Source: Candidatus Bathyarchaeia archaeon (GTDB lineage Archaea > Thermoproteota > Bathyarchaeia > 40CM-2-53-6). From it: a stretch of DNA of 64,000 nt. Both the position numbers and the translations under genes were made by a program. The notes under the pieces were generated by a model. It saw only the letters and a list, made by a program, of their open reading frames with translations. It ran no database searches and was not told where the DNA came from. The stretch is from positions 256,001-320,000 of the forward strand of contig JBEKVV010000002.1 of assembly GCA_049513715.1 (NCBI GenBank), written 5' to 3'. Shown here in pieces: positions 1 through 12,032 of the stretch (position 1 is its first letter; every line of letters starts with the position of its first letter).

Positions 1-1839
1 TCGGCTGCCGCTGCAGTGATTGGGGGGCGTCCAACGATTATTCCAAGCGCTGAGGGTACATCAGTTGGCGGTAAAGCGTTCCCCTCATTCGTGGCCTTCA
101 CAAAGGACGGCCAGTTGCTCGTTGGTGAACCAGCTAGACGACAAGCAGTCTCTAACCCCGAGGGGACTGTGTACGCAATCAAACGAAAGATGGGAACCGA
201 CTACAAGGTCAACGTATTTGGCAAGGAATACACACCGCAACAGATCTCCGCATTCATTCTTCAGAAAATCAAGCGAGACGCCGAAGCTTTTCTCGGGGAC
301 AAGGTAGAGCAGGCCGTCATTACTGTTCCTGCCTACTTCAACGACAACCAACGCCAAGCAACCAAAGACGCAGGCGCAATCGCGGGCCTCAAAGTTGAAA
401 GAATCATAAACGAACCCACCGCCGCCTCACTCGCCTACGGCCTAGACCGAGCGGAGAAAGAGCTGAAGATATTGGTCTTCGACCTGGGCGGAGGGACCCT
501 CGATGTGACCATAATGGACGTAAGCCGCCCAGACCCGAAAGACCCACCAGTATTCGAGGTCAGGTCGACTAATGGGGACACGCAGCTCGGGGGAACCGAC
601 ATGGACACCGCCTTGATCAACTACATTGCCGAAGAGTTCAAGGCAAGCAACGGAATAGACATCCGAAACGACAAAGTTGCCATTCAGAGGGTCCGTGAGG
701 CCGCTGAAAAGGGGAAAATCGAGCTTTCGACGGTTGTAATTACGGACATCAACCTCCCTTTCATATCCGCTGACGCCGCCGGCCCTAAGCATCTCACCAT
801 GACCTTAACACGCGCCAAGTTAGAAGATCTCGTTCGACCAACAATTGACCGTTGTCGCGGGCCGATGGAGAAAGCCATTGAAGATGCGAAGCTGACACCG
901 AAGGACATTGACAAGATAATCTTCGTGGGCGGACCCACCCGCATGCCCATAGTTCGAAAGTTCGTTGAAGAATACATGGGCAAAGGAGCCGAGAGTGGAG
1001 TTGACCCGATGGAGTGCGTAGCAATGGGCGCCGCAATCCAGGCAGGCGTGATTGCGGGGGAAGTGCGTGACCTTCTCCTCCTGGACGTAACGCCACTTTC
1101 ACTCGGAGTCGAAACGCTGGGAGGCGTGCTCACCAAACTGATTGAGAGAAACGCAACCATCCCGACAAAGCGGAGCCAAACATTCTCAACCGCAGCCGAC
1201 TTCCAAACCACAGTCACAGTCCACGTTCTTCAAGGAGAGCGCCCGATGGCCGCTGACAATGTTTCGCTGGGCATGTTCAACTTGACAGGCATTCCACCGG
1301 CGCCTCGTGGAGTGCCCCAGATTGAAGTCACTTTCGACATCGACACCAACGGAATCATGAATGTTGCAGCGAAGGACTTGGCCACAAACAAAGAACAGAA
1401 AATCACCATAACCGCCTCGACGAAACTTCCTAAGGACGAGATCGAGAAGATGGTTAAGCAGGCAGGCCAATTCGCAGCGGAGGATCAGAAGCGCAAGGAG
1501 GAGGCGGATCTTCGCAACGCGGCTGACAACATGATCTACAGTGGGGAACGATTGACGAAGGAACTTGCAGCAAAGCTCTCTAAAGAGCAGTCTGAGCAAG
1601 TAACGAAGAGTGTGGCGGAGCTTCGGGAAGCCCTAGCAGGGAAGGATGCGGGCGCAATCAAGCAGAAGATGGACGCTCTGCAGAAAGTCTTGCAGGAGAT
1701 AGGCACTGCGGCTTACCAGCAAGTTGCCCAACAACAGCAGGCAGCTACTGGCGGGCCAAGCTCAGCGGGTGCAGTTCCGCAGGGTGAGACGAAAGAAGCG
1801 GTCGATGTGGATTACAAGGTCGTGGACGATAAGAAGTAG
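1..1839 (+). CDS. dnaK: Chaperone DnaK (Hsp70), 5' end lies before the window
   Basis: Hsp70 motifs [42 protein letters not shown]. The frame is open from base 1 (SAAAAVIGG), so the N-terminal DLGT motif is upstream. Confidence 0.98.
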
Positions 1840-1863
1840 ATGTGACAATGCGGCAGATCCTAC

Positions 1864-2952
1864 TTGGCCAAACGTGACTACTACGACATACTCAATGTGC
1901 AGAGAAATGCTACGAAAGACGAGTTAAAGACCCAGTACAGGAAACTTGCCCTTCAATATCACCCAGACCGCAACAAGTCACCCGACGCTGAGGGGCGGTT
2001 CAAAGAAATCTCCGAGGCGTATGCCATTCTTTCGGACGATGAGAAGCGAGCCCAATATGACCGGTTCGGGCATGCCGGCATTGACTCGCAATATTCAACC
2101 GAGGACATATTCCGGGGTGTAGATTTCGATGATATTCTCAGAGACATCGGGTTTGGGGTCGGCGGCGGCTTCGGGTCAATCTTCGACGCCTTCTTAGGAG
2201 GTGGCCGACGAACCCGTGGTCCTGTCAGAGGGCAGGATCTGCGTTATGATTTGGAGATCTCGTTGGAGCAAGCCTATTCAGGGCTCACGACCGAGATTGA
2301 AGTTCCAAGGACTGAGCGCTGCTCTGAGTGTGGTGGCTCAGGAGCGAAACCCGGTACCTCCCCGAAGAAGTGTCCCCAGTGTGGTGGCACTGGGCAGATT
2401 CAGCATGTCCAGACTTCTGGTTTCATGCATTTTGCCAGAATAGAGCCGTGCAACAAATGCCGTGGACGAGGGGTCGTCATCGAGAAACCATGTGCCACGT
2501 GTCGCGGGACAGGAATCATCGAGCGAAGAAGGCGAATCAGCGTAAGGATACCTGCCGGTGTTGATAGTGGGTCTCAACTTGTCATGCGCGGTGAGGGTGA
2601 CGCTCCCAACGGCGATGGGCGAAGAGGTGACTTGTACGTTGTTGTGGACATCAGGCCCCATGAAGTTTTTCGCAGAGAAGGCAACGACCTGATTTGCCGT
2701 GTGGATCTCAATTTCTCAAAGGCCACCCTTGGTGGGGAGGTCGAAGTTTCGACTATTGACGGTGCGGCCAAGATCATGGTGCCGCCTGGAACACAAACCG
2801 GCGCATTGTTTCGGCTCAGGAAGAAGGGTATGCCTGCGTTGCGGGACTCAGGACGAGGCGACGAGATAGTGGTCGTGCAAGTGAAAACCCCGACGAAGCT
2901 GACATCGCGACAACGCGAACTTATCCAAGAACTTTCACGCGACGGCCTTTAG
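1864..2952 (+). CDS. dnaJ: Chaperone DnaJ
   Basis: J domain with HPD, G/F-rich linker, four CxxCxGxG repeats; follows dnaK; TTG start. Confidence 0.98.
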   Translation: MAKRDYYDILNVQRNATKDELKTQYRKLALQYHPDRNKSPDAEGRFKEISEAYAILSDDEKRAQYDRFGHAGIDSQYSTEDIFRGVDFDDILRDIGFGVGGGFGSIFDAFLGGGRRTRGPVRGQDLRYDLEISLEQAYSGLTTEIEVPRTERCSECGGSGAKPGTSPKKCPQCGGTGQIQHVQTSGFMHFARIEPCNKCRGRGVVIEKPCATCRGTGIIERRRRISVRIPAGVDSGSQLVMRGEGDAPNGDGRRGDLYVVVDIRPHEVFRREGNDLICRVDLNFSKATLGGEVEVSTIDGAAKIMVPPGTQTGALFRLRKKGMPALRDSGRGDEIVVVQVKTPTKLTSRQRELIQELSRDGL

Positions 2953-2961
2953 GCTTGAACA

Positions 2962-3798
2962 TCAGTTTGCCTGAACTAATGACAGAAGGCGTCGGTGAAT
3001 TCCTGCACCCCCTGCCAAGATTGACCGTGAGAAGTTCTCCCAAGTTCCGCCATCGGAATCTGTCACTTTCCCACTCGCTTCTTGTACTATGAGGCACCCT
3101 GCTGCTGTCTCGTAGATCGGCGACCGTCGGAAAACCGTCACTATTCCATCAAACTTTCCCGCGGCCACGGAGCAGAGGTTGAGGGCCACACTACCGGGGG
3201 ATCGAATGCTATGAGTGAAATGGTAAAGTTTCTTCTCGAAGCCCAACGGGTCAGGTATTGAAGGCTCTGGGGTCCACCATTCATAAATCAATGATGCGTT
3301 TCGAAGCGCTGTCGTGTTGGAAACATGGATTCGTTTTCCGTTCTTGTAAGCACCTTGCATGCGGGCTGCGGTAAACATTTCATCTAATAGAGGATTGTAG
3401 ATTGCCCCTGCGACGGTCCTGCCGCCAACTAGGACGCCGATAGATACGGAGAAGTATGGGATTCTCTTCGCAAAGTTCAATGTTCCATCCAAGGGGTCCA
3501 CGGCCCATGTTATGTTGTGTGAACCAAAATCATGTGTCCCAGACTCCTCAGACTTCACCATGCCCCTGAACCGGCTTCGCTTGATTCGGGCGAGTATGAG
3601 CCTTTCAGACTCCTTGTCTGCGTTGGTTACGATGCTACCTGGGTAGTCGTATTTGCGCCGGACAGAAAGTTTTCCCTTGCCAAACAGTGCAAGGAGTCGC
3701 CGGCCCGCTTCCTCGGCCGCATGTGAGGCAACTTCCATTAGCTCTATTTCAATTTCCAACAGATCAGCTCCAAGATTACCCAGCTTGTAAGCCATCAA
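2962..3798 (-). CDS. Inositol monophosphatase / FBPase family protein
   Basis: SEE, WAVDPLDGTLNF and GSVALNLCSVAAG motifs; start uncertain. Confidence 0.9.
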   Translation of the reverse strand: MMAYKLGNLGADLLEIEIELMEVASHAAEEAGRRLLALFGKGKLSVRRKYDYPGSIVTNADKESERLILARIKRSRFRGMVKSEESGTHDFGSHNITWAVDPLDGTLNFAKRIPYFSVSIGVLVGGRTVAGAIYNPLLDEMFTAARMQGAYKNGKRIHVSNTTALRNASLIYEWWTPEPSIPDPLGFEKKLYHFTHSIRSPGSVALNLCSVAAGKFDGIVTVFRRSPIYETAAGCLIVQEASGKVTDSDGGTWENFSRSILAGGAGIHRRLLSLVQAN

Positions 3799-4024: not shown

Positions 4025-4080
4025 AAGTGTAATGTTTTAAACTTCCCTCACCTGCGAGAACGCCAACTCGGGTGGCATTC

Positions 4081-4563
4081 ATGGAGTGGTTTCCAGAATT
4101 CGTCCAAAAGCACCTAAGCTTCGCGGGCAAATGCTACAAACATTGCGACGGGCCAACCTCGTTGAAGTTTCTCTCACAGGGCTCATCTCACGTTATTGGG
4201 GCTTATGTCTGCGCCGACGGCTTTGTTTCCCAAGTGGTCAACTTCAGCGTCAAACCAGACTTGAAAGCATTCCAAGATCTACTCGCCAACCAAGTAGGAA
4301 AGGAGAATGTCAGTTCCCGGGATATTCGAATCGCTACACGCCACGGTTGGGAACTGGGCTCCGACGCAACACAGGTCATTGAATCGAGACTGGGACATGG
4401 CGCCACCGTCACAGAAGCCTATTGGAGAAGGTATCCAAAGACCGAAGAAGAGAAACAGCAGGCAGTCTCTCTTTGCAGGTCCTGCAACGGTCTCTTTATT
4501 CACAGCAGCGATGACGACCAGCGATTGTGTCCTACATGTCAGAGGAAGCGGAGCAGGGCTTAG
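4081..4563 (+). CDS. Hypothetical Cys-rich protein with C-terminal Zn finger
   Basis: CxxHC near the N-terminus and CRSC...CPTC at the C-terminus; fills the space between neighbours. Confidence 0.65.
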   Translation: MEWFPEFVQKHLSFAGKCYKHCDGPTSLKFLSQGSSHVIGAYVCADGFVSQVVNFSVKPDLKAFQDLLANQVGKENVSSRDIRIATRHGWELGSDATQVIESRLGHGATVTEAYWRRYPKTEEEKQQAVSLCRSCNGLFIHSSDDDQRLCPTCQRKRSRA

Positions 4564-4914
4564 TCAGTTTGGAGTCAGCTTTCGGTTGTAGAACTCGCTG
4601 GCGAAGAAGTCGTCCCACCTAGCCTTCGTCACGTCTACGGCCTCCGAGAACCCAGTGAAGACATGCTTCACAGTGCCGTCATCGTACTCAGCAAATACCT
4701 GCGGAATTAAATAGTCCTCAACGAAATCGCCGTACCTCCGCACAAGCTCATCCGCCAATTTCTCCTCCTCAGGATCATCGATATCCAACACACGCAACGG
4801 GACGCTGAGCGCCGTTTCCATTTGGTGGCCCCGTTCCAGTGACAGCGGAACACAATGTGGGCACCATTCCGCAAGCACCATTGTGACCCTCCTCAACAAA
4901 GTGATTCGCCTCAA
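4564..4914 (-). CDS. Thioredoxin/glutaredoxin-like protein
   Basis: WCPHC active site and cis-Pro loop (LIPQV). Confidence 0.8.
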   Translation of the reverse strand: MRRITLLRRVTMVLAEWCPHCVPLSLERGHQMETALSVPLRVLDIDDPEEEKLADELVRRYGDFVEDYLIPQVFAEYDDGTVKHVFTGFSEAVDVTKARWDDFFASEFYNRKLTPN

Positions 4915-5094: not shown

Positions 5095-5997
5095 TTGATT
5101 ATTGTTGGCGGTTCAACGTCAGAAGCCCTCGCCACTAAAGTGGCAATGGCGCTTGGACAGAAATCTGGAAAACTGGAGATCCGCAGATTTCCGGATGGTG
5201 AAAAGTATCTTCGTGTTTTGGAAGATGTCAAGAATCAGGAAATCGTCGTAGTCCAGTCGATCCACCACGCGCCCGATGAGCTTCTGTTCGAATATTTGCT
5301 CCTCGTGGATGCATTGAAAGACCTCGGTGCGAAGAGGATTGTTAGTTTCATTCCATACTTCGCGTACGCACGGCAGGATGAAAGGTTCCACCCCGGCGAG
5401 GCGTTGAGCTTCAGGACTGTGAGTAAGCTTATGGAGAGTGTTGGGACGGACGAGATCTTCACCATCGACATGCACCAGCACAGAGTACTGAAGTCATCTG
5501 AAGTTTTCAAAATTCCATCCCACAATTTGTCTGCTATGCCACTACTGGCGGAGTATATCGGAAGAACAGTGAAACTGGAGAAACCTCTGGTTATCGGGCC
5601 TGACGCCGAAGCAGAACAATGGGCGAAGTTGGCGGCCGAAAAGCTGGGGGCTGACTTTGACGTGTTCGAGAAAAAGCGGTTCGGGGATAAAGACGTGCAG
5701 GTGCGTCCGCGTAGGGAGAACGCGAATGGCAGGGATGTCCTGATTGTGGACGACATTATCAGCACCGGCGGAACGATCGTTGAAGCGTTGAAGATACTTT
5801 ACTCGCAGGGCGCAAAGAGGGTGAACGTTGCCTGCACTCATCCCATTCTGGCGGGTGGTGCGCTGGCCAGAATCTACGAGGCAGGAGCCCAAAACGTTAT
5901 CGGAACTGACACGGTTCCGAGCCCAATCAGCTATGTCAGCGTGGCTCCGCTAATTTCGGAGCATATTAGGAAGGCGGGGTTAAGTGGCTCTTCCTGA
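5095..5997 (+). CDS. prs: Ribose-phosphate pyrophosphokinase (PRPP synthase)
   Basis: FPDGE, PYFAYARQD and VDDIISTGGT motifs. Confidence 0.97.
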   Translation: MIIVGGSTSEALATKVAMALGQKSGKLEIRRFPDGEKYLRVLEDVKNQEIVVVQSIHHAPDELLFEYLLLVDALKDLGAKRIVSFIPYFAYARQDERFHPGEALSFRTVSKLMESVGTDEIFTIDMHQHRVLKSSEVFKIPSHNLSAMPLLAEYIGRTVKLEKPLVIGPDAEAEQWAKLAAEKLGADFDVFEKKRFGDKDVQVRPRRENANGRDVLIVDDIISTGGTIVEALKILYSQGAKRVNVACTHPILAGGALARIYEAGAQNVIGTDTVPSPISYVSVAPLISEHIRKAGLSGSS

Positions 5998-6973
5998 GCA
6001 AGCTGAGAAAATCGCCGAAGACATTAGGAACATGCGCATTCGCGGCGCGGGGCACATTGCCAGTTCCGCGGTTGAAGCTCTATGCATAGTCGCGAAAAAT
6101 TCCAAGGCTAAGAGCGTCGATGACTTCCTGAAGGAGCTTGATAACAGCGCCCACATTCTGCTCCAAACCAGGCCGACCGCAGTTTCACTACCAAATGCGA
6201 TAAGGTATGTGATGCACCGGGTTAACGAAAAGAAATCTGGCGCTTCCTCTGTGAAGGAAGTTCAGGCAATTGCGATGCATGCTGCTTCAGAATTCATTGA
6301 TAGTACAAGGACTGCGTTGCAACGCATTGGTGAGATCGGAGCTCGAAGAATTCGGGATGGTGATGTCTTGTTAACACACTGCAATAGTAGCGCAGTGCTC
6401 TCGATTATGAAGACTGCATGGAGTCAGGGCAAGCGTTTCGAGGTGATGGTGACCGAAACACGGCCGAGGTTTCAAGGCCGAATTACAGCGCATGAGCTAG
6501 CCAAAGAAGGTATCCCAGTTACGCTGATTCTGGATGATGCGGTTAGGTATTTCATGCAAGATGTCGACAAAGTCATTGTCGGCGCAGACGCGATCACGGC
6601 CAACGGCGCTTTGGTCAACAAGGTCGGAACCTCAGTTGTGGCGTTGGCGGCTCATGAAGCAAAAGTCCGGGTGTTCGTTGCTGCTGAAACCTACAAATTC
6701 AGTCCGGAAACGATGATTGGAGAGCTTGTCAAAATAGAAGAGCGCGACACAACGGAAGTAATCTCACGAGACGAGCTGAAAAAACTCGGAGCTGTTAAGG
6801 TTCGCAACCCATCATTCGATGTCACGCCGTCTGAGTTCATTGACCTGATAATCACTGAACGCGGGATCATTCCTCCGCTTGGCGCATTGTTGATCTTAGA
6901 AGACGTCTTGGGGGTTGTCACACCAGAGGAACTCCGCGGTTACCAAACATACACACTTGAGGAGGAGGCTTAG
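5984..6973 (+). CDS. Ribose-1,5-bisphosphate isomerase (eIF2B-like)
   Basis: IRGA, TRPTAVSLPNA, LTHCNS, ETRP, GADAI, NKVGT, NPSFDVTP; directly upstream of RuBisCO; overlaps prs by 14 bp. Confidence 0.93.
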   Translation: MALPEQAEKIAEDIRNMRIRGAGHIASSAVEALCIVAKNSKAKSVDDFLKELDNSAHILLQTRPTAVSLPNAIRYVMHRVNEKKSGASSVKEVQAIAMHAASEFIDSTRTALQRIGEIGARRIRDGDVLLTHCNSSAVLSIMKTAWSQGKRFEVMVTETRPRFQGRITAHELAKEGIPVTLILDDAVRYFMQDVDKVIVGADAITANGALVNKVGTSVVALAAHEAKVRVFVAAETYKFSPETMIGELVKIEERDTTEVISRDELKKLGAVKVRNPSFDVTPSEFIDLIITERGIIPPLGALLILEDVLGVVTPEELRGYQTYTLEEEA

Positions 6974-7041
6974 GACACGGAGAATTCACGTTGCGCGCGA
7001 TTCTTTATTGAAACCATGCACTTGCTCACACAAGGTGAAGA

Positions 7042-8334
7042 ATGGCAATGACGGAATGGTACCGAGACTTCGTAGACACCAGCCACAAGCCCGGACCAGA
7101 TGAGCTGCTGTGCTTGTTTCGTGTTGAACCTGCAGCGGGCTTTTCGATCGAAGACGCTGCGGGCCGGGTCGCATCTGAGTCGTCGGTCGGGACTTGGACC
7201 GAACTCACCACAATGAGAGACAGAATCCGTCGGTTAATGGCTAAGGCGTACGAAATCCAAGGGAACTTTGTGAAGGTTGCCTATCCACCAGACCTATTTG
7301 AGCCCGGAAACATGCCCCAGATCCTGAGTTCAGTTGCGGGCAATGTTTTCGGAATGAAAGCCGTTCAGAACCTAAGGTTGGAAACTGTTCATTGGCCTAG
7401 GACAGTTCTGAACGGTTTTTCTGGCCCGAGGCTTGGCTTGAGTGGAATACGCAAGCTCTTCGGGGTAAAGAACCGGCCTCTCACTGCCACAGTACCGAAA
7501 CCCAAGCTTGGGCTTACAGCAAAGGGGCATGCGAAAGCGGGGTACGAAGCGTGGGTAGGTGGGGTAGACCTCCTGAAAGATGACGAGAACTTAACCTCAC
7601 AGCCATTCAACAAATTCAAGAAAAGAGTGACCGAGTGTTTCAGACTGCGGGACAAAGCTGAGCATGAAACTGGGGAAAGGAAGAGCTACCTGATCAACAT
7701 AACCGCAGAAACGAACGAGATGCTCCGCCGGGCGAAAACCGTGGCCAAGGCGGGGGGCGAATACGTGATGGTCGACATAATCACCTGCGGATGGGCCAGC
7801 CTTCAAACGCTCCGCGCGACATGTCAGGACCTTAAGCTCGCGATTCACGCCCACCGCGCCTTTCACGCAGCCTTCACCCGAAACCCACTTCATGGCATGT
7901 CCATGCTTGCGGTCTCTGATGTCGCGCGCTTGATTGGCGTAGACCAACTTCACATTGGGACTGTCATTGGGAAGCTCGAATCTCCAAAGGAGGAAGTTCT
8001 AGCGCTCAGGGACAACCTACAGCAAAGGAATGTTAGTCCAGGGAATGCGAGCCTGGGCCAAGATTGGGGCACAAAGAGAGCTGTCTTCCCTGTGTGCTCG
8101 GGTGGCCTCCACCCCGGCCTGGTTCCCGAGCTCGTTAAACTCGTTGGAACTGATGTAGTGATCCAAGCGGGTGGAGGTATCTGGGGGCATCCAGACGGCG
8201 GAAGGGCTGGAGCTATGGCTCTTAGGCAAGCGGTCGAAGTCGCCGTCAGCGGATTAAATCTAGATGACTATGCCCGTGAACATAAGGAACTTCAGAGAGC
8301 AATTGACACCTGGGGCGTTGCCACTTACAAGTAA
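7042..8334 (+). CDS. rbcL: RuBisCO large subunit, archaeal form III
   Basis: ESSVGTW, VPKPKLG, LKDDE carbamylation motif, HAHRA, loop-6 GKLE, SGGLH and QAGGG all present, so a bona fide RuBisCO rather than an RLP. Confidence 0.96.
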   Translation: MAMTEWYRDFVDTSHKPGPDELLCLFRVEPAAGFSIEDAAGRVASESSVGTWTELTTMRDRIRRLMAKAYEIQGNFVKVAYPPDLFEPGNMPQILSSVAGNVFGMKAVQNLRLETVHWPRTVLNGFSGPRLGLSGIRKLFGVKNRPLTATVPKPKLGLTAKGHAKAGYEAWVGGVDLLKDDENLTSQPFNKFKKRVTECFRLRDKAEHETGERKSYLINITAETNEMLRRAKTVAKAGGEYVMVDIITCGWASLQTLRATCQDLKLAIHAHRAFHAAFTRNPLHGMSMLAVSDVARLIGVDQLHIGTVIGKLESPKEEVLALRDNLQQRNVSPGNASLGQDWGTKRAVFPVCSGGLHPGLVPELVKLVGTDVVIQAGGGIWGHPDGGRAGAMALRQAVEVAVSGLNLDDYAREHKELQRAIDTWGVATYK

Positions 8335-8375
8335 GCTGAGTGAACATTCAAGAACCTCCAAAGCTGGTTTAGCGA

Positions 8376-9185
8376 ATGAACCCCAAACGAGACGTCTGTG
8401 TCACATTTGACCTGTGGGAAACGCTCATCGCGGACGAATCGGAACTCGATGTAGCTAGAGGTCGAATGCGAACCGAGGGTATTCACAAAGTACTAGACGG
8501 AATGGGAATCAAGGTTCCATTGGGGGATCTCCAGAAAGCCTACGATGTAACTGACACGCAGCTCGATGCCGCATGGAGCCGTAACGAGAATCCAACGCCG
8601 ATTGAACAGATTGAGCTCCTTCTCAAGACTGCTACCAAAGGCAAGGTCTCGTTGCCGCAGGATTCACAAGCACTTCGAATGTTGGAAAGCGCCTATGTTG
8701 ATCCGATTCTCGTCTCACCTCCCAAATTAAAGGAAGATGCCCTATTCGCTTTGGAGGGCGCGCGCAGCCGAGTAGGCCGAGTGGGCTTGATCAGCAATAC
8801 CGGCCGTAGTCCAGCCGCTTCTTTACGCCAAGTGCTAGAAAAATATGGGCTCTTGAGATTCTTTGACGCGACCATTTTCTCCGACGAGGTTGGAACCCGC
8901 AAGCCAAACAGGCGGATCTTTGAAACAGCCGCAAATGAATTGCAAACCGACCTCACAAAGATGATTCATGTTGGAGATAATCCCGAAGCGGATGTCTGGG
9001 GAGCAAAGCAAGCTGGGATGAGGGCTGTGCTTCTTGAGTACGATGTTCCAGATGATTTCAAGAAACGTCCGACTTCGCTGTTCGCCCTTTCCAGAACGAA
9101 GCATATCTCAGATTCGGAGATTCATCCAGACGCCAGGATCAAATCATTGCGAGAGGTTCTTGATTTCCTGGGCTCTCTGGACTAG
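8376..9185 (+). CDS. HAD-superfamily hydrolase
   Basis: Motif I FDLWETL, ISNT, KP, HVGDNPEADVWGA; co-oriented 41 bp after rbcL. Confidence 0.9.
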   Translation: MNPKRDVCVTFDLWETLIADESELDVARGRMRTEGIHKVLDGMGIKVPLGDLQKAYDVTDTQLDAAWSRNENPTPIEQIELLLKTATKGKVSLPQDSQALRMLESAYVDPILVSPPKLKEDALFALEGARSRVGRVGLISNTGRSPAASLRQVLEKYGLLRFFDATIFSDEVGTRKPNRRIFETAANELQTDLTKMIHVGDNPEADVWGAKQAGMRAVLLEYDVPDDFKKRPTSLFALSRTKHISDSEIHPDARIKSLREVLDFLGSLD

Positions 9186-9209
9186 ACTCATGTCTGGATA
9201 CACGTTGGG

Positions 9210-10151
9210 CTAGGAAACGCTGTCAAGGTGTTTGAGCAGATCAGTTCGATTCGGGCTTCCACGTGTTTCGGGCCTTGTTGCTTTGATTCCGCCAGCGCAA
9301 TTGGCCCATCCGAGAGATTCTTGGTCCGTATGTCCTTCGGAGAGGGCGGCAACGAATGCGCCGAGGAAAGCATCGCCGCAGCCAACTGTGTTCACGGCCC
9401 TCATTCCATGTGAGTTCAAGTCTAACGCTCCAACAACTGTCTTCTTGTTTTCGTGATACATCTGCACACCCTTCGCCCCCAGTTTGGTGACCACTTTCAA
9501 ACGCGCGTTAAGTCTCATGAGCTTTGCAGCGCCTTGTTCAGGGTCCTTTGTTCCAGTCAAGTTTTCGATTTCTGATTGGTTGGCGACAACGTAGTCCGTA
9601 TTCTCGATTAGGTTTCTCACTGATTCAATTCCGAGGGTGGATTTGATGCCCGGGTCCCAGGCCACGGTTTTCCCTAAGCGTTTTGCTTCTTTGGCAAGTT
9701 TCAGTCCCGTCTCGAACGGTGGGTCCATTATCGTGATCACCGCGGCCTCAGAAACCAATCTCCGACGTTCCGCAGTATCCAAGTCCTCGGCGGTAATCGT
9801 TGCGTTAGCACCGAAGTGTGTGTGGATTATGTTCTCTCCCTCTTCATCGATGACGATGTACGCCTGACCGGATTCGACATTTTCGTTGAATTTGAGGCCT
9901 GAAACAACGACACCTTCTTCTTCGAAGATTTTGACCTGCTCGGAAGCAATCGAATCCTTACCTAGCCCGCCGATAATTGCAGCCTGATTAGGGCCAAGTA
10001 GGCGTGCGGCGGCCACAGCGACATTTCCCGCCTTACCGCCAGGTACGCGGGTGATTCTCGTGACCACGACTTCCTCGCCTGGTTGGGGGAATCTCTTCAC
10101 GAACAGGTTAATGTCCCAATTTACAGCGCCAATCACGAGGGTCTTGAGCAA
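9210..10151 (-). CDS. rbsK: Ribokinase (PfkB family)
   Basis: NWD, PGGKAGN and NTVGCGDAF motifs. Confidence 0.8.
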   Translation of the reverse strand: MLKTLVIGAVNWDINLFVKRFPQPGEEVVVTRITRVPGGKAGNVAVAAARLLGPNQAAIIGGLGKDSIASEQVKIFEEEGVVVSGLKFNENVESGQAYIVIDEEGENIIHTHFGANATITAEDLDTAERRRLVSEAAVITIMDPPFETGLKLAKEAKRLGKTVAWDPGIKSTLGIESVRNLIENTDYVVANQSEIENLTGTKDPEQGAAKLMRLNARLKVVTKLGAKGVQMYHENKKTVVGALDLNSHGMRAVNTVGCGDAFLGAFVAALSEGHTDQESLGWANCAGGIKATRPETRGSPNRTDLLKHLDSVS

Positions 10152-10264
10152 GGTAATCGCTCAACTCCTAGCGTCCGCGTTGCAAATTTGCTTTTGCTTC
10201 CCAGCTTTCAATCAACGGTGCCACAGGTTGGTGATGTAGCTAAGATTGCGGTTGCGGCTGCTTC

Positions 10265-11803
10265 TCACTCTGGCGGAATTTCTTTGAAGACTAAGCTTAG
10301 GTTTAGTCCTTCTTTCATAAGTCTACTTTTCGCAGTGATGTAGATTATTGCGCCCAGTATGAAGGTGGCTGTAATGTATCCGTATGCAAGTGTGTTGCCG
10401 CCCCAGATTCTTGGATAGGCTAAGAACTCGGAGGTTAAGTACACGAAGACAAGAGTTTGCAGTACCCCCGCAACGGCCAGAAGAATCCTGGAGCTACCTT
10501 TCTCCCTCTTTACAGCATAGACTGCTGCGCCGAGTCCTACGAAGGCGAAGTAGACCATAGATGCCATCACAGCACCGTAGAGGGAAGAAACGGTTCCATA
10601 GAGGAACGCTGCGAGACCTATCAGAATCACCGACACTACGAGATCAAGTAAGTGCGCTACAACGGGGGAACCGTACTTCGGGCTAACATATGCCAGTTGA
10701 GACGGGAGGAAACTGTCGAAAGCCTGCGCGAGCATGTATCTGGAGATCGTGATTATGCCGAACGCCAAGATCGCTATAGTAAGTACAATCCAACCTAGCC
10801 CAATTATGAATGACTGAACAAAGTTGGATGACACACCCATCGCCAATGTCCAGAAGTTGAAGGAGTAATTGTTCACAAGCGTGGGGTTTGTGAAGGCTGC
10901 AGTTATGAATTGATATCCTCCCACGTAGTACATTGCTGCATAGGGAATTGTCACAACCAAGAAAGCGAATAGGAGCGAGATTGGCACGTTCCATCTGGGA
11001 GCCTTGCCCTTCAACTCGGAGCCAACTGATGGCGCCGCGTTAAACCATGGATAGGTAAAGAGAGCAAAGTAAGGCATCATAAGCAAAGTTGCGTTCAGGT
11101 CGAAGGTTGGTCCGGAGTAGGAATTGGCGAGAGATGCATAGGTGACGTTCGGAATATTCAGATTGTTGATGTAATTCTCCACGCCTTTCGTTCCTGCAGA
11201 AAGCAATGTAACTGTGGCAAGAGCTACGGCGATCACGCCGATCGTCCAGAAGGTTGAGATTATTTTGAACCCAAGCCTCGGTTTCAGGATGTTGATTGCG
11301 ATCAACACAACGAGTATTACTGAAGCCAACAGGAATTGTGAGAATGGGCTCGCGCCAGGTATGTTACCCGGCAGCGCGAGACCGAGCATAGCCGAGTTAC
11401 CGAGTGAAAGCCCTACTGAACCAACTGCGAACACGGCGGATAGGGCGATAAGTGCAAGATAGGGCATGGTCTCAACCGTGATGCCCATGAATGTGACCGT
11501 GCTGCCCACAAAGCCGCCAAGTGAACGCGAGAGCCAAACGTAGTCTCCTCCTGTTCTAGATATTCGTCTCGATAACATTGTGTAAGTTACCATTTGAGGA
11601 ACTGCAAGCAAGGCTGCAATCGCTGAGCCGTATACCAGGTTAACGCCGGATACCGTCGGGAGGGCAAGCATCGTAAACCCGATCAGCGCGAGTGCAGCAC
11701 CAACCGACATGTAGCTCACGTTAATGGCAATCGCGTCAAGCAACGAAACTCTCTTCGTTAACCCGGTGGCGTCTCTTAGGAAGACCTTAGAACGCGATGT
11801 CAT
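10265..11803 (-). CDS. APC-family permease
   Basis: FLRDATGL N-terminus, RTGGDYVWLSR and about 12 TM helices. Confidence 0.9.
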   Translation of the reverse strand: MTSRSKVFLRDATGLTKRVSLLDAIAINVSYMSVGAALALIGFTMLALPTVSGVNLVYGSAIAALLAVPQMVTYTMLSRRISRTGGDYVWLSRSLGGFVGSTVTFMGITVETMPYLALIALSAVFAVGSVGLSLGNSAMLGLALPGNIPGASPFSQFLLASVILVVLIAINILKPRLGFKIISTFWTIGVIAVALATVTLLSAGTKGVENYINNLNIPNVTYASLANSYSGPTFDLNATLLMMPYFALFTYPWFNAAPSVGSELKGKAPRWNVPISLLFAFLVVTIPYAAMYYVGGYQFITAAFTNPTLVNNYSFNFWTLAMGVSSNFVQSFIIGLGWIVLTIAILAFGIITISRYMLAQAFDSFLPSQLAYVSPKYGSPVVAHLLDLVVSVILIGLAAFLYGTVSSLYGAVMASMVYFAFVGLGAAVYAVKREKGSSRILLAVAGVLQTLVFVYLTSEFLAYPRIWGGNTLAYGYITATFILGAIIYITAKSRLMKEGLNLSLVFKEIPPE

Positions 11804-11908
11804 AGTTACTCGGCGACATAATCCCATCCAGTCTTGCTTAAGCGTTTTTTTCGACGCAGGTCAAGTTGTAAAAGCGCTCTGATAAGATTACAGGGAGTGT
11901 CGAAGAGG

Positions 11909-12032
11909 ATGCCTAAGCAAATCATTTTGGACGTCGATACAGGTGTCGACGACACCGAACGCTAAAGTGTGCACAAGCGTCAACGGCGAACGTTTCCTGA
12001 AGGTGTTCATGGATCGCATTGCGCCCTCATGA
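11909..12032 (+). pseudogene. Inosine/uridine-preferring nucleoside hydrolase remnant (internal deletion)
   Basis: ATG 11909 gives MPKQIILDVDTGVDD (DxDxGxDD signature). A +1 frame from 11955 gives PNAKVCTSVNGERFLKVFMDRIAPS*, typical of the family C-terminus. Not in the ORF track. Confidence 0.85.

Follow-up and report, generated by a model that had tools for sequence, protein, structure and literature searches.

The region analysed is a 64,000-nucleotide stretch of a Candidatus Bathyarchaeia genome (G000; 99.4% complete, 8.8% contamination). It corresponds to G000:C2:256001-320000 and is called the window here; feature coordinates are window positions. It holds a gene cluster in which a phosphoribosyl pyrophosphate (PRPP) synthase gene, prs, is joined to genes for ribose-1,5-bisphosphate (R15P) isomerase, the large subunit of a form III RuBisCO (rbcL) and a HAD-family hydrolase (Table 1). 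Facing these are genes for a PfkB-family kinase and an APC-family permease, and divergent from the permease lies the remnant of a nucleoside hydrolase (NH) gene, all at the positions reported in the initial annotation of this DNA. That annotation proposed a pathway independent of AMP phosphorylase, in which NH and a ribokinase would feed ribose through PRPP to RuBisCO and the HAD hydrolase would convert PRPP to R15P. The most probable reading of the cluster is a version of the archaeal nucleotide-to-RuBisCO pathway that is already known, and an intact AMP phosphorylase gene is present on the same contig.

Table 1. Features of the cluster in window coordinates, with the basis of each assignment
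Feature	Position	Strand	Basis
prs, PRPP synthase, archaeal type	5095..5997	+	NF002095 332 bits, cut-off 296; PDB 1U9Y
R15P isomerase	5984..6973	+	TIGR00511 426 bits, cut-off 314; PDB 3A11, 5YFJ
rbcL, form III RuBisCO large subunit	7042..8334	+	TIGR03326 608 bits, cut-off 497; PDB 2CWX
HAD hydrolase, helical cap, motif I DLWET	8376..9185	+	no equivalog passed; predicted model; synteny
PfkB-family kinase, most likely ribokinase	9210..10151	-	PF00294; residue alignment; below both equivalog cut-offs
APC-family permease	10265..11827	-	PF13520
NH pseudogene	11909..12032	+	terminal pieces align to relatives' intact NHs

Core genes, AMP phosphorylase and a second Prs clade

The first four genes are closely packed, as prs and the isomerase gene overlap by 14 bp and the gaps from isomerase to rbcL and from rbcL to the HAD gene are 68 bp and 41 bp. 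The kinase gene is convergent with the HAD gene, with 24 bp between them. Prs, the isomerase and RbcL exceed curated NCBIfam cut-offs, and the HAD hydrolase and the kinase pass no equivalog. The isomerase retains intact THCN and GADA motifs that align to 3A11 and that we take to be the catalytic Cys and Asp motifs; its best PDB matches are 3A11 (375 bits) and 5YFJ, a 'ribose 1,5-bisphosphate isomerase' (358 bits). The active-site motifs of RbcL (KPK, KDDE, HRA, HIGT, SGG, GGG) are likewise intact, its best PDB match is 2CWX (493 bits), and its closest relatives in GTDB are labelled Ca. Bathyarchaeia. Prs, the sole PRPP synthase of the genome, carries intact FPDGE, YARQD, DxH, KxR and DDIISTGGT motifs, the canonical motifs of this enzyme, and matches the PRPP synthase 1U9Y over its full length (245 bits).

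The absence of AMP phosphorylase holds within the window, but an intact gene without stops is located 9.9 kb past the window end on the same contig, about 66 kb from rbcL (G000:C2:329901-331394; TIGR03327 659 bits, cut-off 535). It was recovered by the genome-wide search that the initial annotation had itself named as the test of its claim. All 59 genomes of the family were searched for co-occurrence; these are kin and not independent, and the counts are descriptive. The isomerase is found in 19 of the 59, and AMP phosphorylase accompanies it in 17 of those 19 genomes and occurs in 2 of the 40 lacking the isomerase. The intact gene and this co-occurrence both argue against a pathway independent of AMP phosphorylase. 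Among 80 wider loci fetched with RbcL and scored for neighbours within 8 kb, AMP phosphorylase is near rbcL in 32 and the isomerase in 38, with prs, the HAD hydrolase, the kinase and NH near rbcL in none of the 80.

Two further observations concern AMP phosphorylase loci. An AMP phosphorylase–R15P isomerase–rbcL operon in G014 has short duplicate rbcL and isomerase fragments between its intact genes (L043:9266-9571), and at L054:5669-9402 a gene pair resembling hydantoinase/oxoprolinase genes by eye is divergent from AMP phosphorylase.

The window Prs belongs to a second clade that is distinct from the order-wide housekeeping Prs. In a tree of 30 Prs sequences it falls into a 16-member clade apart from 14 housekeeping-type copies (SH-aLRT 100); all trees come from quick IQ-TREE runs with midpoint rooting, no bootstrap and no test of clades. 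Window-type sequences score 262-278 bits on the model PRK07199, compared with 182-194 bits for two housekeeping copies. The housekeeping prs copies inspected adjoin THUMP-like and RNase Z-like genes, as judged by eye. Both types are present in seven genomes (five of the sister genus g5, G038 and G049), and the window-type copy abuts the isomerase gene in all seven. This set leaves out G094, in which both copies are of the housekeeping type, and G033, whose second match is weak and contains stops. The pairing spans three Bathyarchaeia families and two forms of RuBisCO, since the g5 enzyme is related to form I. At the g5 loci (L334, L337, L360-L365) this RuBisCO matches 7QSV with 562 bits and 6URA with 505 bits, compared with at most 441 bits for form III entries, and its gene stands in an operon of the type that holds form III rbcL in the window. 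No window-type prs was found at three other g5 RuBisCO loci (G026, G029, G079).

The surroundings of the pair recur as well. In G007 the order is isomerase paralog–prs–isomerase–rbcL–HAD, followed by the kinase, an ECF transporter and NH, spread over two contig ends; in G001 these genes are found in a different arrangement within ~11 kb, and G013 retains a prs fragment between the isomerase paralog and the isomerase. In G038, from another family, prs and the isomerase gene lie beside an ECF transporter, a ribokinase-like kinase and NH. Conservation of the prs–isomerase–rbcL–HAD order, which the initial annotation had proposed to check in relatives, was therefore seen in part: it is kept in G007 and rearranged in G001, but the HAD gene abuts rbcL in only one of 22 other loci. 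The broader idea that a module leading from ribose and ribose-5-phosphate (R5P) to PRPP is tied to the isomerase and RuBisCO is supported by this recurrent synteny.

The G038 locus (L389, G038:C25:5053-13874) has prs–isomerase divergent from the ECF genes, a 338-aa protein, the ribokinase-like kinase, a BtpA/SgcQ protein and NH. By eye the 338-aa protein looks like an ADP-ribosylglycohydrolase, with no NCBIfam match at 1e-30.

In metagenomes, 80 Prs loci were collected, many of them short, of which 74 are nearer the window Prs by a rough bit-score split. These 74 hold the isomerase or its paralog in 10 cases, the kinase in 23 and a HAD ortholog in 1. Neighbours of window-type prs are often genes of sugar catabolism (48 of 105 listed open reading frames scanned), including transketolase (TKT), ribulose-phosphate epimerase (RPE), phosphoglycerate kinase (PGK), phosphoglucose isomerase (PGI), 6-phosphogluconate dehydrogenase (6PGD) and HxlB. 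In one locus (L462) TKT, RPE, R15P isomerase, window-type Prs and PGK are consecutive. As a lead, the repeated linkage of this Prs clade to the isomerase is modest but testable.

The genome also encodes a paralog of the isomerase (~48% identical) at G000:C3:52358-53302 (L376:6359-7306). This gene normally heads the isomerase operon and in G000 is displaced to contig C3; it was also seen at L045, L046, L049, L050, L053 and L360-L363. In genus g1, THSY and GAEA replace THCN and GADA in the paralog, and in g5 the corresponding motif is CYG[HY] with the Asp kept. The paralog may be a regulatory or non-catalytic subunit.

The HAD hydrolase, the kinase and flanking genes

The distribution of the HAD hydrolase has been probed across the family, with orthologs called at E <= 1e-25. 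They occur in 23 of the 59 genomes, 11 of the 19 with the isomerase and 12 of the 40 without it, and in none of the 10 g5 genomes. At the 22 loci other than the window, some on short contigs, the gene abuts rbcL in one (G007), lies ~4 kb from it in one (G001) and comes immediately after prs in seven; both the window and G007 have the isomerase gene and rbcL placed between prs and HAD. Four of the seven prs–HAD genomes (completeness: G018 98%, G021 95%, G004 75%, G017 73%) have no detected R15P isomerase, form III rbcL or AMP phosphorylase. A profile of 96 HAD sequences retrieved only distant HADs (<=101 bits) from five genomes with a prs–isomerase operon. We read the HAD gene as carried along with prs and the kinase gene. 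Against this reading, the HAD ortholog is present in 11/11 genomes of the window genus with the isomerase and in 8/12 without it. The step from PRPP to R15P that the initial annotation had assigned to it does not fit an enzyme that tracks prs and the kinase, occurs in genomes with no RuBisCO module and escaped detection in five further genomes with a prs–isomerase operon. Two observations that the initial annotation had named as refuting its model, an AMP phosphorylase elsewhere in the genome and a HAD gene not syntenic with the RuBisCO module in relatives, were both made.

Motif I of the hydrolase reads D12-L-W14-E-T16, with D12, W14 and T16 invariant in 96 of 96 sequences and no second Asp, a residue that is usual in this motif of HAD enzymes. 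Conserved basic residues are R28, R32, R144 and R240. A predicted model (pLDDT 95) finds its best fold matches, ~20% identical, among capped HADs of the YfnB/PH0459/NANP type, and PDB sequence, Atlas and Foldseek searches returned only generic HADs. Candidate functions scored below their NCBIfam cut-offs: ribulose-1,5-bisphosphate (RuBP) 5-phosphatase reached 44 bits of 330 and phosphoglycolate phosphatase, an alternative raised in the initial annotation, 46 bits of 180; no entry for CbbY, the xylulose-1,5-bisphosphate (XuBP) phosphatase that was the other alternative raised there, appears among the PDB sequence or fold matches listed. A literature search by title and abstract returned no HAD acting on PRPP among the papers listed. 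The protein is probably a clean-up hydrolase of sugar or nucleotide phosphates.

The kinase shows the NxD and GGKxxN motifs on which its designation as a ribokinase had been based (N11-x-D13; G38-G39-K40-x-x-N43), and alignment of the active site favours this designation. Equivalents of the E. coli RbsK residues N14/D16, G42-K43-x-x-N46 and D255 are all present, and E143 is replaced by Asp. K40/A97/D143 align to K43/A98/E143 of RbsK, positions at which four Haloferax ATP-dependent ribose-1-phosphate (R1P) kinases have S/K/S. K40 is conserved in 120/120 and D143 in 118/120 homologs (the best 120 of 2173 matches). Strict conservation of K43 and E143 has been described for ribokinases (PMC7797080). 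Profile scores are less distinctive. The best model, the bacterial ribokinase model TIGR02152, gives 174 bits with a cut-off of 300, the ATP-dependent R1P kinase model NF053626 139 of 330 and the ADP-dependent model NF041134 67 of 500. In phmmer comparisons the kinase scores 97 bits with RbsK and 76-91 with R1P kinases, so that global similarity is about equal, and it shares NWD and NV with the Haloferax R1P kinases. The gene is present in 32 of the 40 family genomes without R15P isomerase and lies near prs in genera g1, g2 and g3. Of the two identities, ribokinase is the likelier.

Kinase genes were also seen in other settings. A conserved g5 cluster (L162-L167, L178) combines the kinase with a 340-aa protein, a uridine-phosphorylase-like gene, an ECF transporter and NH; G081 has two copies of the kinase, one of which scores higher on the R1P kinase model (159 vs 143).

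The initial annotation had correctly recognised an NH remnant divergent from the permease. It is a pseudogene in which ~15 N-terminal codons are fused out of frame to ~25 C-terminal codons, with ~270 codons deleted from the middle, and both pieces align to the intact NHs of relatives (best E 2e-6). At the corresponding site, G001 and G007 carry a complete NH gene together with an ECF transporter. Because the remnant is deleted and the genome search found no intact, full-length NH reading frame in G000, release of ribose from nucleosides by NH, the proposed first step, is dead in this organism. The APC permease is inverted relative to the arrangement in relatives, where the permease is divergent from the kinase. 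No evidence for ribose or nucleoside as its cargo was found, and its candidacy as the transporter of the pathway is unsupported; the NH-linked transporter of relatives is of the ECF type.

Upstream of prs, the window carries dnaK, dnaJ and an inositol-monophosphatase-family gene (16-3798), a set of genes that is conserved on the upstream side of prs in genus g1. Between them and prs, at 4072-4914, are two small open reading frames of 163 aa (with a CxxC…CxxC end) and 116 aa (with a CPHC motif), for which no Pfam or NCBIfam match was found. A promoter and terminator scan, of a type wrong for archaea, returned matches at chance level.

A proposed PRPP-side inlet to the pentose bisphosphate pathway and its rivals

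The reading that we favour, at a probability of about 0.58, is an AMP-phosphorylase-dependent pentose bisphosphate pathway with an inlet on the PRPP side. In this scheme we infer each enzyme activity, the conversion of PRPP to nucleoside monophosphate (NMP) and the direction of flux. First the kinase would phosphorylate free ribose to R5P, which the oxidative pentose phosphate route could supply as well, as 6PGD and RpiA are present in G000. Prs would convert R5P to PRPP with release of AMP, and a phosphoribosyltransferase (PRTase) would join PRPP to a base to give NMP; this is the weak link of the scheme, its enzyme being unproven. AMP phosphorylase, encoded 66 kb downstream, would then form R15P from NMP and return the base, taking over the step that had earlier been given to the HAD hydrolase. 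The net result of these middle steps would be R5P + ATP + Pi → R15P + AMP + PPi. Finally, the isomerase would convert R15P to RuBP, and RuBisCO would carboxylate RuBP to two molecules of 3-phosphoglycerate (3-PGA). As neither transketolase nor hexulose-phosphate synthase (Hps) was detected in the genome search of G000, the pathway may be the only exit from pentose phosphates to C3 compounds in this organism. Replacement of transketolase by the RuBisCO route across the family was considered and set aside, as the co-occurrence counts show no such pattern.

The search for adenine phosphoribosyltransferase (APRT) proposed in the initial annotation did find a gene of this family in G000, which passes PRK08558 (252 bits, cut-off 184) and is a candidate for the transferase step. 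G000 also has a second purine PRTase and two nucleoside phosphorylases; the two PRTase genes lie at about 136.6-137.4 kb of contig C4 and about 215.6-216.2 kb of contig C2. Recycling of the base is unproven because the identities of the PRTases are ambiguous and no uracil phosphoribosyltransferase (UPRT) was found.

Several observations weigh against the favoured pathway. The APRT candidate is a fusion of a helix-turn-helix (HTH) domain to a PRTase, and its PDB matches include PurR besides APRTs; the second PRTase is equally close to Sulfolobus GpT-2 and GpT-1; UPRT was not found in five genomes, which gave only weak matches to other PRTases. The window Prs, as the only copy, is needed for biosynthesis regardless, and G000 has purF and pyrE. 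Of the 11 genomes in the window genus that have the isomerase, only 3 place prs beside or near rbcL. AMP phosphorylase lies beside window-type Prs in 0/74 metagenome loci, many of them short, and was not detected in two genomes with the isomerase and rbcL, G005 (93% complete, 180 contigs) and G008 (76%). Furthermore, transketolase is found in 12 of the 19 genomes with the isomerase and 27 of the 40 without it, so that its absence is not tied to RuBisCO.

It is unlikely that the genes share no more than a neighbourhood, with prs and the kinase serving anabolic ribose salvage, the isomerase and RuBisCO disposing only of the R15P that AMP phosphorylase makes in NMP turnover, and little flux between the two. 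Such an arrangement would agree with the proximity of prs to the kinase in g2 and g3, where rbcL, the isomerase and AMP phosphorylase were not found, with retention of the kinase in 32/40 genomes without the isomerase, with the 0/80 wider rbcL loci that have prs nearby, and with the loss of NH in G000. It does not readily account for a second prs that abuts the isomerase gene in 7/7 two-copy genomes across three families and two RuBisCO forms, nor for the 14 bp overlap of the two genes in the window. We consider it improbable that the kinase acts on R1P, or on nucleosides, in the known nucleoside branch fed by nucleoside phosphorylases, with prs incidental. The two nucleoside phosphorylases of G000, the NWD and NV motifs and about equal overall similarity to R1P kinases, the Asp at position 143, the g5 kinase adjoining a uridine-phosphorylase-like gene and the g5 copy that scores higher on the R1P kinase model (159 vs 143) would all suit this activity. 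The K40 (120/120) and D143 (118/120) pair, however, matches the K43/E143 pair of ribokinases (PMC7797080), the S/K/S residues of the R1P kinase type are absent, and the kinase is partnered by Prs, which acts on R5P, and persists in 32/40 genomes without the isomerase.

The other two alternatives dispense with AMP phosphorylase. Formation of R15P directly from PRPP or R5P without the HAD hydrolase is improbable, be it abiotic, catalysed by a Nudix enzyme or a side activity of the Prs clade. It draws on the pairing of window-type Prs with the isomerase or its paralog in 10/74 metagenome loci and with AMP phosphorylase in 0/74, on the sugar-catabolic genes (TKT, RPE, PGK, PGI, 6PGD, HxlB) around this Prs, on the PRK07199 scores that set the clade apart from two housekeeping copies, and on the conversion of PRPP to R15P proposed for thaumarchaea without AMP phosphorylase (bioRxiv 2019.12.22.886556, PMC7300363). 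Set against this are the AMP phosphorylase of G000 and of 17/19 relatives, the intact canonical motifs of Prs and its closest structural match to a standard PRPP synthase, the lack of any other Prs in G000, which carries purF and pyrE, and the search for PhnN, found in 0/5 genomes, G000 included. In the version centred on Prs, to which we give similarly little credence, the second clade would be a catabolic inlet yielding R15P by its own catalysis or through channelled, labile PRPP. If true, G000 would have a shunt from glucose or ribose through R5P and RuBP to two 3-PGA that recaptures CO2 from the oxidative pentose route, in a genome with 6PGD but no detected transketolase or Hps, and RuBisCO-bearing thaumarchaea without AMP phosphorylase might be explained. 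Removal of the beta-phosphate of PRPP by the HAD hydrolase, as the initial annotation had proposed, is very improbable. The gene does follow prs directly in 7/22 other loci and is found in all 11 isomerase-bearing genomes of the genus, including two without detected AMP phosphorylase; the four conserved arginines are present, and a motif I with one Asp might be adapted to a substrate with a good leaving group. Against these stand the AMP phosphorylase of G000, the four of seven prs–HAD genomes without isomerase, form III rbcL or AMP phosphorylase, in which the reaction would only drain PRPP, the failure to find an ortholog in 10/10 g5 genomes or, by profile, in 5/5 prs–isomerase genomes, and the single rbcL-abutting locus among 22.

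Relation to known systems and biological meaning

The PRPP route, as a proposal, and the adjacency of prs, isomerase and rbcL are already published, the latter for Gagatemarchaeaceae. A route from PRPP through AMP and R15P to RuBP was proposed in PMC5113843, which also refers to Finn and Tabita (2004) for an abiotic PRPP route; the thaumarchaeal proposals named above go from PRPP to R15P, and across these direct proposals the step is either abiotic or due to a Nudix enzyme. These schemes share with the favoured pathway the sequence from R5P through PRPP, R15P and RuBP to 3-PGA, the logic of the initial annotation as well, but they come without a ribokinase/NH gene cluster, and the thaumarchaeal cases lack the AMP phosphorylase that G000 has. 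Like the AMP/NMP pentose bisphosphate pathway of T. kodakarensis (PMC9700705, PMC5113843), G000 has intact AMP phosphorylase, R15P isomerase and form III RuBisCO genes. It differs in that the gene for AMP phosphorylase stands apart from the cluster, in which prs, the HAD gene, the ribokinase gene and, as a remnant, NH surround the isomerase gene and rbcL, and in having a kinase that resembles ribokinase instead of R1P kinase. APRT, AMP phosphorylase, R15P isomerase and form III RuBisCO have been reported across Bathyarchaeia (PMC8407382).

A close published arrangement is found in three Gagatemarchaeaceae genomes (PMC10640624), in which rbcL, R15P isomerase and prs are adjacent and the RuBisCO is of type III, as in the window. 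The window belongs to another lineage and adds the ribokinase, the HAD hydrolase and the NH remnant, and its Prs is placed in a second clade. A bathyarchaeon with a form I-alpha RuBisCO and tandem R15P isomerase genes has also been described (bioRxiv 10.64898/2026.09.21.753380), and it resembles the g5 paralog–isomerase–prs–rbcL operon, whose Prs is sister to that of the window genus; the window differs in its form III RuBisCO and in the paralog having moved to contig C3. The halophile non-carboxylating pentose bisphosphate pathway, with its HAD enzyme and R1P kinase (PMC9700705), likewise has a PfkB kinase, R15P isomerase and a HAD protein in one neighbourhood. The window has RuBisCO in addition, and its HAD hydrolase and kinase score 44/330 and 139/330 on the RuBP 5-phosphatase and ATP-dependent R1P kinase models of that pathway. 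No publication on a ribokinase/NH-linked version or on the second Prs clade was found in a search that left most subscription journals and supplementary tables outside its scope. The literature search likewise returned no paper on operons of AMP phosphorylase with PRPP synthase, nor on PRK07199.

The cluster demonstrates neither new HAD chemistry nor a pathway free of AMP phosphorylase. Its interest lies in a standing question, whether archaeal RuBisCOs act only in nucleotide salvage or are fed from sugar phosphates as well. Together, the cluster and the second Prs clade provide a defined set of enzymes with which the long-proposed PRPP inlet could be reconstituted.

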